From IMG/VR virus record IMGVR_UViG_2913137851_000001: a stretch of 25,991 bases of DNA. One strand, given 5' to 3'. The notes below the pieces were generated by a model. It did not search any database and was not told the DNA's origin. It saw only the letters and a program-made list of their open reading frames with translations. Shown piece by piece: positions 4,756-22,683 of this stretch. A program made the position numbers and the translations under genes. Each line of letters opens with the position of its first letter. The stretch's first letter is position 1. The stretch is from a virus (lineage: Duplodnaviria; Heunggongvirae; Uroviricota; Caudoviricetes).

Positions 4756-4808
4756 GGGCGGCAGAGCAGTCACGGAGTAAAACTGATACCGCCAAACGTC
4801 ACCAGAAA
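4756..4808 (-). ncRNA. dicF: DicF small regulatory RNA
   Basis: Reverse complement of 4756-4808 reads TTTCTGGTGACGTTTGGCGGTATCAGTTTTACTCCGTGACTGCTCTGCCGCCC, matching recalled 53-nt DicF. It ends in a GC-rich stem followed by TTTTT (the + strand AAAAA at 4751-4755). Sits between ydfC and dicB as in K-12. Confidence 0.85.
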
Positions 4809-7915: not shown

Positions 7916-8042
7916 ATACAGCGAACTCCATTGGTTTAGTTGGATATTTACTGTGCTGGACAAAAACGGTTTGCGGGGAAATCTTAGTTAAGTAGAATGA
8001 CTGCGGGTGCTTGAGGCTATCTGCCTCGGGCATGGACACCAA

Positions 8043-8046
8043 CGGC
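8043..8046. repeat. Target-site duplication (CGGC), left copy
   Basis: CGGC immediately flanks the IS terminus TGACCTGCC at 8047 and is repeated at 9268-9271. Confidence 0.7.
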
Positions 8047-8075
8047 TGACCTGCCCCCACGATTAGATACAACAC

Positions 8076-8909
8076 TCAGTTAGTAACGTCGGAATCTTCA
8101 TTCTCAGAATGACCCTTTCTCCAGCCCGCTGCAAATTCAGACGGTGTCTGATAATTCAGCGTGGAGTGCGGGCGGCATTCGTTATAATCCTGCCGCCAGT
8201 CATTAATAATTTTCCTGGCATGAACGATATCGCTGAACCAGTGCTCATTCAAACATTCATCGCGAAATCGTCCGTTAAAGCTCTCAATAAATCCGTTCTG
8301 CGTTGGCTTGCCCGGCTGGATTAAGCGCAACTCAACACCATGCTCAAAGGCCCATTGATCCAGTGCACGGCAAGTGAACTCCGGCCCCTGGTCAGTTCTT
8401 ATCGTCGCCGGATAGCCTCGAAACAGTGCAATGCTGTCCAGAATACGCGTGACCTGAACGCCTGAAATCCCAAAGGCAACAGTGACCGTCAGGCATTCCT
8501 TTGTGAAATCATCGACGCAGGTAAGACACTTGATCCTGCGACCGGTGGAAAGTGCGTCCATGACGAAATCCATCGACCAGGTCAGATTGGGCGCCGCCGG
8601 ACGGAGCAGCGGCAGACGTTCTGTTGCCAGCCCTTTACGACGTCTTCTGCGTTTTACGCCCAGGCCACTGAGGTGATAAAGCCGGTACACGCGCTTATGA
8701 TTAACATGAAGCCCTTCACGGCGCAGCAACTGCCAAATACGACGGTAGCCAAAACGCCTGCGCTCCAGTGCCAGCTCAGTGATGCGCCCTGATAAATGCG
8801 CATCAGCAGCCGGACGGTGAGCCTCATAGCGGCAGGTCGACAGGGATAAACCTGTAAGCCTGCAGGCACGACGTTGCGACAGACCGGTCGCATCACACAT
8901 CAACATCAC
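8076..8909 (-). CDS. IS3-family transposase OrfB (DDE integrase core)
   Basis: 277-aa ORF with a DDE/rve-like region (D ... D ... E with K/R, e.g. [19 protein letters not shown]). In the -1 frame relative to orfA. Confidence 0.8.
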
Positions 8910-8932
8910 GGCTTCCCGCTTCTGGTCTGTCG

Positions 8933-9196
8933 TCAGTACTTTCGCCCAAGAGCCACCTGAAGCGCCTCTTTATCCAGCATGGCTTCGGCAAGCAGCTTCT
9001 TGAGTCTGGTGTTCTCTTCCTCAAGCGACTTCAGGCGCTTAACTTCAGGCACCTCCATACCGCCATACTTCTTACGCCAGGTGTAAAACGTGGCATCGGA
9101 AATGGCATGCTTGCGGCAGAGTTCACGGGCGGGTACCCCAGCTTCGGCTTCGCGGAGAATACTGATGATCTGTTCGTCGGAAAAACGCTTCTTCAT
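8933..9196 (-). CDS. IS3-family transposase OrfA (HTH)
   Basis: 87 aa, [46 protein letters not shown]..., the typical IS3/IS407-type OrfA with HTH and leucine zipper. Confidence 0.8.
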
Positions 9197-9267
9197 GGGG
9201 ATGTCCTCATGTGGCTTATGAAGACATTACTAACATCGGGGTGTACTAATCAACGGGGAGCAGGTCA

Positions 9268-9271
9268 CGGC
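9268..9271. repeat. Target-site duplication (CGGC), right copy
   Basis: CGGC immediately after the IS terminus ...CAGGTCA at 9261-9267. Confidence 0.7.
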
Positions 9272-9474
9272 AGATAGAGAAAAGCCCCAGTTAACATTAC
9301 GCGTCCTGCAAGACGCTTAACATTAATCTGAGGCCAATTTCATGCTAGACACATGTAGGTTAGCCTCTTACGTGCCGAAAGGCACGGAGAAGCAGGCTAT
9401 TGTTAACACCAAGCTGTAATGTCCCCTTTGAACCATTCTAAAATGTCCCCAGACAATTCTCTGGGGGATTTTTC

Positions 9475-10788
9475 ATGATCAAAGAGACTGTTACGATGAG
9501 TCATAAGGAACTCCACCGACTTCAGATTATTCAGGAACAAGCTGCGGCACGCATTGGCATTTCTATTCGGCAGGTTAAACGTCTGGTGCAACGGTATAGA
9601 AATGAAGGGCCTTCTGGTCTGGTTTCCCACCGACGTGGAAAGCGTCCTAATAATTCCTTTTCTACTGAATTCAGAGCAACAGTAATTTCACTCCTCAAAG
9701 GCCGTTACGCTGATTTTGGACCTACGTTTGCGTGCGAAAAATTGCGCGAGATACACGGTTTATCTTTATCCGTTGAAACTCTCAGAAAGTGGATGATAGA
9801 AGAGGGGTTATGGCGTGAACGCCGTCGTAAAATTGCCCGTATATATCAACGCCGCATGCGACGACCATCTTACGGTGAACTGATCCAGATTGATGGCTCA
9901 CCTCATGACTGGTTTGAAAATCGAGGCCCCAGATGTACACTGATCGTTTTCATTGATGATGCCACCAGTGCGTTGATGGCGTTGCGTTTTGTGCCTGCTG
10001 AAACAACCCGGGCTTACATGGAAACCCTCCGGGGTTACCTTAATGATCATGGCGTACCGCTCGCTCTCTACTCTGATAGACACAGTATATTCAGGGTAAA
10101 TAACCCAGAGCGGGAAGGTGAGCTGACCCAGTTCACTCGTGCGATAAAGACACTGGGCATCGAGCCAATCCATGCCAACAGCCCGCAGGCAAAAGGGCGG
10201 GTAGAGCGCGCCAATCAGACACTACAGGACAGGCTGGTCAAAGAAATGCGGCTTCAGAATATCAGTGATATTGAAACAGCAAATGCATGGTTGCCGACCT
10301 TTATTGAAGCCTATAACAACCGGTTCGCTACGTCGCCTCGTACTACTGATAATGCTCATCTTGATGTGCACCATTCTGAAGAGGAACTGGGTTATATCTT
10401 CAGCCTACAGGCGAAGCGCGTTCTGTCTAAAAATCTCACTTTCCAGTACAAAAGCAGTGCGTTTCAGGTACGCAGTGAGGGCCGGGGATATCGACTTAGG
10501 CATTCGGTTGTTACTGTATGCGAGAACTTTGACGGTGAAATTAACGTTCTGTATGACGGGAAAGCGCTGGGCTGGGAAAAGTATGTTGATGGCCCGGAGC
10601 CTATACCACTGGATGATGAAAAGAGTGTCCATGAACGAGTGGATAATGCCCGTATTGATTTACGCTCAAAATACTATGTTAAACCTAAAGCTGACCATCC
10701 CTGGCTTACGCGCCGAACGCAAAGTCATCAGCAAGTTAAGCCCCCGAAGTTACCTAAAAAGAAGCCTGATCCCGATAAAAAAGATTGA
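9475..10788 (+). CDS. DDE transposase (IS481/ISNCY-like; N-terminal HTH plus integrase-core domain)
   Basis: 437-aa ORF with N-terminal HTH (ISIRQVKRLVQRY) and a central rve-like DDE region (IQIDGS...D, FIDDATS, SDRHSIF, KGRVERANQTL). Ends of the element were not identifiable by eye. Confidence 0.75.
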   Translation: MIKETVTMSHKELHRLQIIQEQAAARIGISIRQVKRLVQRYRNEGPSGLVSHRRGKRPNNSFSTEFRATVISLLKGRYADFGPTFACEKLREIHGLSLSVETLRKWMIEEGLWRERRRKIARIYQRRMRRPSYGELIQIDGSPHDWFENRGPRCTLIVFIDDATSALMALRFVPAETTRAYMETLRGYLNDHGVPLALYSDRHSIFRVNNPEREGELTQFTRAIKTLGIEPIHANSPQAKGRVERANQTLQDRLVKEMRLQNISDIETANAWLPTFIEAYNNRFATSPRTTDNAHLDVHHSEEELGYIFSLQAKRVLSKNLTFQYKSSAFQVRSEGRGYRLRHSVVTVCENFDGEINVLYDGKALGWEKYVDGPEPIPLDDEKSVHERVDNARIDLRSKYYVKPKADHPWLTRRTQSHQQVKPPKLPKKKPDPDKKD

Positions 10789-16107: not shown

Positions 16108-16407
16108 AAAAATTCCTTAATACTGATAACTTGGCGCACTATACACACGTTCCTGAAGAAAGCTATAGTTTTTTGATGGGGTTGAAGATGGCTGGATGTC
16201 TAAAATAAACATTGCTTCATATGTTCAACTATGCGTTAATGATTGCGTCGGTTTGAAGAACAGACGATATACGAAGTAGTTTACTAAAGCAGTTCTCATT
16301 TCAGGTGTTATTCACTTATTCCTTCTTTGAGTCTCTCCAATTAAGTACGAAGTCGTTTCTGTTATGCAAACCATTTATGCCGAAAGGCTCAAGTTAAGGA
16401 ATGTAGA

Positions 16408-16623
16408 ATGTCAAATAAAATGACTGGTTTAGTAAAATGGTTTAACGCTGATAAAGGTTTCGGCTTTATTTCTCCTGTTGATGGTAGTAAAGATGTGTTT
16501 GTGCATTTTTCTGCGATTCAGAATGATAATTATCGAACCTTATTTGAAGGTCAAAAGGTTACCTTCTCTATAGAGAGTGGTGCTAAAGGTCCTGCAGCAG
16601 CAAATGTCATCATTACTGATTAA
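16408..16623 (+). CDS. cspB: Cold-shock protein CspB
   Basis: 71-aa product [71 protein letters not shown], the CspA family with RNP1/RNP2 motifs. Confidence 0.9.
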
Positions 16624-16903
16624 AATTCATCGCTCGTCTGTATACGATAACGAAGAAGGCTGATGCCTGAGTAGAGATACGGACAGAGTAGTGAATATTG
16701 GATCTCTTTAATAAAAAGTAAGGAGGTCCAATACATGAAACAATGGCTAGCATATTTGGCAAAATCTTAATCAGGAAAAGTATGCTAACCATTGTGGTGA
16801 AGTGCAGGTTTGCTGCATGAATAGTTTTACAGCAGAAGCTAACTGCTGGCATGGCAAAACAAAGTGCGTAAGTGGATGACTCCCACAAAAAGCACCACAA
16901 TCT

Positions 16904-18932: not shown

Positions 18933-19182
18933 GGTAATATTAAATCGGAACATTTACATCGCGGAATGTAAAATTTAAATAAAAAGGACTCTTCCATGAG
19001 CCAAAATTCCTGAAATCTTAAGGGTAAGATAAAAGGTCTTAATCAGAATGACACGTTTTATTAATAAATAAAGCTATTCTTTCATTGCTGTGTTTTTCTT
19101 TACAAAAGTAATCCTTGCTATGGGTGGTTAATCATGCGTTAATGGTGTTCTGGTTTGTTACAAATTTATCTGAAGCAGTCAT

Positions 19183-19191
19183 TGTTATAAT
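19183..19191 (+). promoter_or_regulatory. Extended -10 promoter element upstream of cspI
   Basis: TGtTATAAT about 100 nt upstream of the cspI ATG. The -35 is weak. Transcription start was not determined. Confidence 0.4.
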
Positions 19192-19294
19192 TTTATTATT
19201 TGTACCTCTTGAGATTTCCTTGTTGGTTTTTCTCTCTGATATTTTTTTTCGGACCATTCTGCCCAAGGGCTAATTTCTTCAAAAGGTAATAATT

Positions 19295-19507
19295 ATGTCT
19301 AACAAAATGACTGGTTTAGTGAAATGGTTTAACCCTGAAAAAGGTTTTGGTTTCATCACGCCGAAAGATGGCAGCAAAGATGTGTTTGTCCATTTCTCAG
19401 CAATTCAGAGCAACGATTTCAAAACATTAACTGAGAATCAGGAAGTTGAATTTGGTATTGAGAACGGACCTAAAGGTCCTGCCGCTGTTCATGTAGTGGC
19501 GCTTTGA
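19295..19507 (+). CDS. cspI: Cold-shock protein CspI
   Basis: 70-aa product [82 protein letters not shown] as in cspA-type leaders. Confidence 0.9.
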
Positions 19508-19710
19508 GGTAGACAATATTACAAACCATATTCACTTTAGATGCCCGTGTTGTCATGGTTCCCAGTATAGAACATCATCTTTTGATGTTTCTGACATGAA
19601 TCCTTTCGGGGCAAAATGTATCTTTTGTAAATCAATGATGATTACATTTGATAATATTTCACAATACTTAAATGCCAGCCGTCTGTCGTTGGATTTAAAA
19701 AAGTGAAAAT

Positions 19711-22108: not shown

Positions 22109-22683
22109 TGGCATTCAGAATGAGTGAACAACCACGGACCATAAAAATTTATAATCTGCTGGCCGGAACTAATGAATTTATTGGTGAAGGTGATGCATAT
22201 ATTCCGCCTCATACAGGTCTGCCAGCAAACAGTACCGATATTGCACCGCCAGATATTCCGGCTGGCTTCGTGGCTGTTTTCAACAGTGATGAGTCATCGT
22301 GGCATCTCGTTGAAGATCATCGGGGTAAAACGGTTTATGACGTGGCTTCCGGCGACGCGTTATTTATTTCTGAACTCGGTCCGTTACCGGAAAATGTTAC
22401 CTGGTTATCGCCGGAAGGGGAGTTTCAGAAGTGGAACGGCACAGCCTGGGTGAAGGATACGGAAGCAGAAAAACTGTTCCGGATCCGGGAGGCGGAAGAA
22501 ACAAAAAACAACCTGATGCAGGTAGCCAGTGAGCATATTGCGCCGCTTCAGGATGCTGCAGATCTGGAAATTGCAACGGAGGAAGAAATCTCGTTGCTGG
22601 AAGCATGGAAAAAGTATCGGGTATTGCTGAACCGTGTTGATACGTCAACTGCACAGGATATTGAATGGCCAGCACTGCCGTAG
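22108..22683 (+). CDS. tfaQ: Tail-fibre assembly chaperone
   Basis: 191-aa ORF starting at the stop of the tail-fibre gene (ATAATGG overlap); typical Tfa N-terminus ([17 protein letters not shown]...). Confidence 0.8.

Follow-up and report, generated by a model that had tools for sequence, protein, structure and literature searches.

The window, that is, the whole stretch of 25,991 nucleotides analysed here, corresponds to the Qin prophage of E. coli C, running from int to ydfJ, and at positions 8047-9267 it carries an IS3-family element of 1221 bp with its transposase on the minus strand. The insertion is intergenic: its neighbours are a degraded hypothetical gene on one side and a pseudogene for an ISNCY-family transposase on the other, and in the empty allele the insertion point is not spanned by any annotated gene. 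The element, its terminal repeats and its flanking duplications are delimited as follows.

8047-9267, minus strand: complete ISSen4 (IS3 family), 100% identical to RefSeq copies over 1221 bp, ends fixed by the empty site
9223-9267, minus strand: left terminal inverted repeat (IRL, upstream of orfA), 5'-TGACCTGCTCCCCGTTGATTAG..., from end-to-end alignment and kept in relatives
8047-8090, minus strand: right terminal inverted repeat (IRR), ending ...GGGGGCAGGTCA-3', from end-to-end alignment and kept in relatives
8043-8046: target-site duplication CGGC beside IRR, from the sequence and the single CGGC of the empty site
9268-9271: target-site duplication CGGC beside IRL, on the same evidence

The terminal inverted repeats start TGACCTGC..., and the outermost 12 nt of the two ends, TGACCTGCCCCC and GGGAGCAGGTCA, are 92% complementary; in a gapped alignment of the ends, the imperfect repeat reaches approximately 40-45 nt once two 1-nt gaps are allowed. 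Members of the IS3 family are described as elements approximately 1.2-1.55 kb long, whose terminal inverted repeats are imperfect and finish in 5'-TG...CA-3' (PMC6211511), and both the length of 1221 bp and the TGACCTGC...GCAGGTCA ends agree with this description. A match between two 4-bp flanks is weak evidence on its own, since it arises by chance once in 256 cases. The empty site of E. coli RM14721 provides the comparison: it reads ...CACCAA-CGGC-AGATAGAG..., with ...GGACACCAA as the left flank before a single CGGC and AGATAGAG... as the right flank, and it lacks exactly 1221 + 4 bp with respect to the window, the rest being 100% identical. Because the empty site has one CGGC, the element is exactly 1221 bp long and was inserted with a 4-bp duplication, in line with the short (3-5 bp) target duplications of the IS3 family. 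The original prediction of a complete 1221-bp IS3-family element with imperfect inverted repeats and a duplicated CGGC is hence confirmed in its boundaries and its flanks, the comparison with the empty site being one that the prediction itself had named as able to refute it.

Over its 1221 bp, the element is 100% identical to copies labelled in RefSeq as "IS3-like element ISSen4 family transposase". Judged by sequence identity, it represents ISSen4, a known insertion sequence, in an intact copy, the name being taken here from RefSeq labels; the ISfinder convention that copies of the same insertion sequence share at least approximately 95% DNA identity was applied through these RefSeq-labelled copies. 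The element is widespread. It is present in 679 of 5426 complete E. coli genomes; among plasmids, 3052 records carry it, mostly from Klebsiella, Enterobacter, Escherichia and Citrobacter, and identical or near-identical copies occur in Morganella, Enterobacter, Kluyvera and Shewanella within a collection holding one genome per species. WG5 and C122, two assemblies of E. coli C, carry it at 20 places, and the copy number across E. coli C assemblies is 19-21.

Insertion site and prophage context

When a 3.4-kb query spanning the element and its surroundings was compared with complete E. coli genomes, the insertion at this site was found, at 100% identity, only in seven of them: WG5 and three derivatives, PA11, C122 and NCTC122. 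Their names and their shared complement of 19-21 copies suggest that these seven genomes represent one strain lineage. In many other genomes, both flanks are matched at 100% over a span exactly 1225 bp shorter. Transposition into this site is thus specific to one lineage.

Strains A27 and 23CRST024 were considered as further carriers of the same insertion and rejected, as theirs are independent insertions nearby (loci L010 1586-2706 and L011 3510-4630). The same short Qin-like segment has gathered independent insertions in these strains, with ISSen4 at a GACC site in A27 and within ydfW (CCAG) in 23CRST024, and it is occupied by ISEc22, of the IS66 family, in a dozen other strains.

Among distinct insertions of related elements, a perfect 4-bp duplication borders 10 of 28, against a chance expectation of approximately 1 in 256 for each, and the target sites conform to no strict consensus. 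In the empty site of the present insertion, CGGC falls on the margin of a perfect 9-bp inverted repeat, CTATCTGCC / GGCAGATAG, whose arms (window positions 8017-8025 and 9269-9277) are separated there by 18 nt; a 9-bp inverted repeat of this kind is found at approximately 0.9% of random window positions. Hairpin targeting as a general rule was nevertheless rejected, as the other nine insertions with duplications have no repeat longer than 6 bp, and the inverted repeat at the target CGGC is a purely local property.

The surroundings of the element differ from those of the K-12 prophage. The 437-aa open reading frame adjoining the insertion (9475-10788, plus strand) encodes an ISNCY-family transposase, annotated in RefSeq as a pseudogene without its C-terminus, and its DNA is absent from K-12 Qin, which also lacks the DNA flanking the present insertion. 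Within approximately the first 6000 positions of the window, the Qin prophage of E. coli C has intact genes for integrase, excisionase and an exonuclease (2.5 kb), and the K-12 equivalent of this region (locus L004, 20079-22709) contains an IS2E remnant with the pseudogenes ydfE and intQ on either side. Elsewhere in the window, Rfam matches were obtained for the DicF sRNA (4756-4807, minus strand), for two cspA-type thermoregulator leaders (16247-16639 and 19149-19534, plus strand) upstream of cspB and cspI, and for the IS009 RNA family (22451-22649, plus strand).

The IS2E remnant bears on the remark, in the original prediction, that names IS2 as the element of this prophage in K-12. An IS2 remnant (IS2E, insD7) is indeed present in MG1655 Qin, but it is located between ydfE and intQ, at the opposite end of the prophage. 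That the present element was not recognised as IS2 is borne out as well: the transposase predicted from it obtains 45 bits with the IS2 TnpB model (NF006918), whose cut-off is 597, and falls far under threshold on IS2, IS481 and IS21 models, while scoring 308 bits against the NCBIfam model for IS3 family transposases (NF033516, cut-off 160).

Reading frames and the putative shift site

The coding part of the element has the layout described for the IS3 family, with two consecutive open reading frames of which the second, orfB, is in the -1 phase and partly overlaps the first, orfA. The 0/-1 arrangement originally predicted for the two frames agrees with their phases on the minus strand.

9204-9208, minus strand: Shine-Dalgarno-like GAGGA, 7 nt before the orfA ATG, read from the sequence, with an inferred function
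8933-9196, minus strand: orfA, 87 aa, with an HTH DNA-binding domain (Pfam HTH_Tnp_1, PF01527, 83 bits) and a leucine-rich C-terminal helix
8076-8969, minus strand: orfB frame (-1 with respect to orfA), stop at 8076-8078, with the DDE catalytic domain (Pfam rve 86, rve_3 108 and HTH_21 52 bits)
8939-8945, minus strand: predicted -1 shift site G_CGA_AAG in orfA phase (GGG CGA AAG TAC TGA), two codons before the orfA stop
8076-9196, minus strand: predicted OrfAB transposase, 373 aa, fused by a -1 shift at the junction ...ALGRK / VLTTDQK...

The -1 frame is open from position 8969, the last upstream stop (TAA) lying just before it, and the overlap between orfA and orfB is hence 8933-8969, or 37 nt, ending in orfA phase with ...GCT CTT GGG CGA AAG TAC TGA. 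The original prediction had located the overlap at 8909-8933, an interval that actually separates the stop codon of orfA from the first orfB GTG; with the overlap misplaced beyond that stop codon, the shift site was missed. In such elements, the overlap should be measured from the upstream stop of the -1 frame instead of from the earliest orfB start codon.

The earlier failure to find a canonical slippery sequence is correct as far as it goes. When the 37-nt overlap was searched for slippery heptamers, no A6G, no X_XXY_YYZ heptamer, no homopolymer or A run longer than 3 nt and no other in-phase A_AAG were found, and the three X_XXY_YYZ heptamers present in the whole element are all out of phase and outside the overlap. 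What the overlap does contain is the non-canonical G_CGA_AAG, at 8945-8939. According to the review by Atkins et al. (2016), IS1222 productively uses -1 frameshifting at G_CGA_AAG for the synthesis of its transposase, through a single-tRNA slip in which tRNA-Lys moves from AAG to AAA next to a 5' CGA codon read by an inosine-containing tRNA-Arg (PMC5009743); the source study for this shift is Mejlhede et al. (2004; J Bacteriol 186:3274), as cited in PMC5009743 and PMC10885494. On sequence grounds, the absence of A6G from the present element is explained by this documented, non-canonical IS1222-type site and by the curated RNA family that covers it. An IS3-family element without A6G is, then, not necessarily defective or odd.

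With orfA read through AAG and translation continued at GTA in the -1 frame, the predicted OrfAB agrees in length with a 1121-nt RefSeq coding sequence (WP_085950818.1), which is annotated over the same span in two pieces with the note "programmed frameshift". The predicted fusion contains a DDE triad formed by D210 (8568-8570), D269 (8391-8393) and E305 (8283-8285), accompanied by R312; 35 residues separate D269 and E305, and the basic R312 follows seven positions after the glutamate, as in a DD(35)E transposase. The exact 373-aa fusion has no entry in a large protein collection, in which frameshifted products may simply not be stored.

RNA structure and conservation of the shift site

The junction between orfA and orfB is covered on the coding strand by a match to a curated RNA family, the parts of which are listed here together with a sequence upstream of the shift site.

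8849-8966, minus strand: Rfam RF00383 (IS1222_FSE, IS1222 ribosomal frameshifting element), 156.6 bits, E = 5e-34, model positions 1-118 of 118
8924-8932, minus strand: 5' arm CGACAGACC of a 9-bp outer stem that begins 6 nt downstream of the shift site, from the Rfam consensus and an independent minimum free energy (MFE) fold
8877-8885, minus strand: 3' arm GGUCUGUCG of the outer stem, from the Rfam consensus and the MFE fold
8908-8919, minus strand: inner hairpin 1 of the Rfam three-way junction (GCGG-GAAG-CCGU), only partly conserved
8887-8904, minus strand: inner hairpin 2 of the Rfam structure (GUUG...CGAC), weakly supported and broken in close relatives
8953-8958, minus strand: Shine-Dalgarno-like AGGUGG, 7 nt before the shift heptad, from the sequence, with AGG in at least 90% of 36 relatives

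The match to RF00383 spans the entire model and exceeds its gathering threshold of 45 bits. An independent fold of 8938-8872 yields the same outer stem, with an MFE of -23.5 kcal/mol and a z-score of -2.4 relative to shuffled sequences. This stem is present in all 15 distinct intact members of the Enterobacterales clade, where its only changes are two one-sided G-U substitutions, and, being near-invariant, it has therefore no covariation to offer. A different measure is provided by the third codon positions of orfB, 79% of which vary overall among the 15 members of this clade, whereas none of the six located in the arms of the outer stem do so, a result with a probability of approximately 1e-4 if sites were independent, which strictly they are not. 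This pattern points to selection on the stem arms at the nucleotide level, beyond that acting on the protein. Outside the Enterobacterales clade, the Rfam structure is not kept: a covariation test was carried out on 36 relatives (60% of cells paired), and RNAalifold returned no consensus on the 36. The notion that the Rfam structure is general to the wider group was accordingly dropped, the distant relatives being without the pairing. Upstream of the shift site, AGGUGG could represent a candidate stimulator, in a position that is also under coding constraint; upstream Shine-Dalgarno stimulators of frameshifting are known from dnaX and IS911.

The conservation of the shift site itself was examined in 80 related loci (L012-L091), 47 of which have an intact orfA and an open orfB. 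In all 47, the position two codons ahead of the orfA stop is occupied by an A-rich slippery sequence, which is N_CGA_AAG in 30 of them.

C_CGA_AAG: 17 of 47 relatives
G_CGA_AAG: 12 of 47 relatives
A_CGA_AAG: 1 of 47 relatives
G_GGA_AAG: 12 of 47 relatives (Burkholderia-type and others)
G_GGA_AAA: 2 of 47 relatives
A_AAA_AAG: 1 of 47 relatives
C_CAA_AAG: 1 of 47 relatives
G_GTA_AAG: 1 of 47 relatives

The CGA_AAG hexamer is thus fixed while the base preceding it drifts, and it sits where sister elements have classical heptamers. This position, homologous to that of the classical heptamers, supports CGA_AAG as the functional site and leaves no ground for supposing that the element is without one. 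Degraded copies were also encountered. In Pseudomonas lundensis (L071), a truncated orfB occurs together with a shift site mutated to CAA_AAG, and in Tatumella ptyseos (L039) and Kosakonia sacchari (L035) a mismatch in the 3' stem arm is found alongside a truncated orfB.

These comparisons bear on the possibility that OrfAB is produced by some recoding event other than a slip at CGA_AAG, either at another codon pair within 8933-8969 or through transcriptional slippage by RNA polymerase. Although transcriptional slippage is known in some IS3-family elements (IS1447, PMC6211511), it requires runs of approximately seven or more bases, and the overlap, with its homopolymers of at most 3 nt, offers neither such a run nor a heptamer or a second in-phase A_AAG that could serve as another shift site. 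Furthermore, the hexamer is retained in those 30 of the 47 intact relatives, and the remainder have classical slippery heptamers at that very position. Recoding elsewhere in the overlap or by transcriptional slippage is, on this evidence, highly improbable, and G_CGA_AAG stands as the predicted site of the shift.

Among the relatives, the sequence downstream of the shift site differs from clade to clade, and the Rfam three-way junction does not extend beyond the Enterobacterales. It is tempting, if rather doubtful, to read the clades as an evolutionary series in which a heptamer (G_GGA_AAG in the Burkholderia-type elements, A_AAA_AAG or G_GGA_AAA in others) is set against the weaker N_CGA_AAG of the ISSen4/IS1222 and Marinobacter-type clades. 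If such a series were true and undescribed, it would provide a natural set in which to study how clade-specific stimulators compensate for a weak shift site; it would constitute a modest addition, leaving the identity of the element unchanged.

Transposase production, activity and comparison with known systems

In the mechanism proposed for this element, most ribosomes translating orfA would stop at its UGA codon and release the 87-aa OrfA. A minority would slip back by one base at G_CGA_AAG, with the tRNA-Lys on AAG re-pairing with AAA, as the family literature suggests, and the slip would probably be aided by the structured RNA beginning 6 nt downstream. The slipped ribosome would then go on in the orfB frame and complete the 373-aa OrfAB DDE transposase. 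OrfA alone would act as a regulator, to judge from work on the IS3 family (PMC6211511) and on IS911, IS2 and IS3. By analogy with other IS3-family elements, OrfAB would bind the terminal repeats and carry out a single-strand transfer, generating a figure-eight that would be resolved into a double-stranded circle with abutted ends, in a copy-out/paste-in process, and the circle would integrate through a staggered cut, giving rise to the 4-bp target duplication. Four points are presumed here from the family literature: that ribosomes slip at this G_CGA_AAG, how efficiently they do so, what the RNA structure contributes, and the pathway of transposition. As regards transcription, a promoter and terminator scan identified in IRL no minus-strand promoter passing consensus and no convincing sigma-70 promoter; TTGATT-18-TAATGT, picked out by eye in IRL, fails the criteria of the scan, and no convincing promoter was seen at the circle junction.

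Evidence of activity comes from the E. coli C lineage. Krol et al. (2019) reported an "IS3-like" element in 20 places (1 + 19 copies) in E. coli C, and linked one copy, located 86 bp upstream of csrA, to a change in csrA expression and to biofilm formation (PMC6805351). The matching copy number suggests that the "IS3-like" element of that study is ISSen4. The element family is clearly active in E. coli C, because it has reached 20 copies there and has been tied by a published study to csrA expression and biofilm formation. In the same work, insertion sequences affecting wzzB and ugd were described in E. coli C (PMC6805351), and an identical ISSen4 is found between ugd and wzzB in WCHEC050613 (locus L001, 1501-2721), an unrelated E. 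coli, bordered by a TGGC duplication.

As an alternative, the copy in the window might be a non-autonomous element or a dead relic, with orfB translated alone from a GTG or ATG at approximately 8903-8909, or not translated at all, and with no fusion produced. In-frame GTG and ATG codons do follow the orfA stop, and clearly degraded relatives exist, such as those of P. lundensis and T. ptyseos. The present copy, however, keeps both frames intact, is base-for-base the commonest form of the element in hundreds of genomes from several genera, is bordered by a perfect target duplication and belongs to a set of 20 copies in the E. coli C genome, and the prospect of a relic is accordingly slight. In studied IS3 members, an OrfB lacking the HTH and zipper part of OrfA is not known to act as the transposase. 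Taken as a sequence, this copy is probably active, and the data are best explained, with little room for doubt, by an intact, probably active ISSen4 inserted in Qin that would produce OrfAB by a -1 slip at G_CGA_AAG.

The element shares the main features of IS911, IS3, IS2 and IS150, including the 0/-1 layout of two open reading frames, a synthesis of OrfAB by -1 frameshifting that is predicted for the present copy, the DDE transposase, the TG...CA ends and a short target duplication (PMC6211511), but these elements differ from it in their shift site, which is typically A_AAA_AAG (A6G). The CGA_AAG hexanucleotide also occurs outside insertion sequences, in the A_CGA_AAG of Bacillus subtilis cdd, where the same single tRNA-Lys slip takes place (PMC5009743) as an incidental event in a cellular gene and not in the service of a transposase.

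Closer parallels are found in that part of the IS3 family to which ISSen4, as an IS1222/IS407-like element, may belong. The IS407 subgroup, as defined in ISfinder, comprises elements whose transposases cluster with those of IS407-type elements and which generate a 4-bp duplication. As a candidate member, the present element shows the 4-bp duplication and has Burkholderia elements among its nearest non-enteric relatives (62%). These IS407-like Burkholderia elements, putative members of the subgroup, show approximately 62% amino-acid identity, the same orfA length and a shift site at the same position, but they differ in carrying the canonical heptamer G_GGA_AAG and in having no Rfam three-way junction. 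The nearest relative on a Pantoea agglomerans plasmid is 83% identical and has T_CGA_AAG as its site. The IS1222 of Enterobacter (Pantoea) agglomerans, in turn, has the same G_CGA_AAG in the same phase and position and is likewise 1221 bp long, and the 118-nt RF00383 model of its frameshift element is matched by the window over its full length, nearly base for base. With ISSen4 itself, no difference was detected: the full 1221 bp are 100% identical, and the 1121-nt frameshifted coding sequence is the same. Public resources already include the element and its name as well as the unusual shift site and the RNA family spanning that site, and all of these are, as such, known; what sets this copy apart from ISSen4 copies elsewhere is solely its place of insertion, in Qin of the E. 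coli C lineage.
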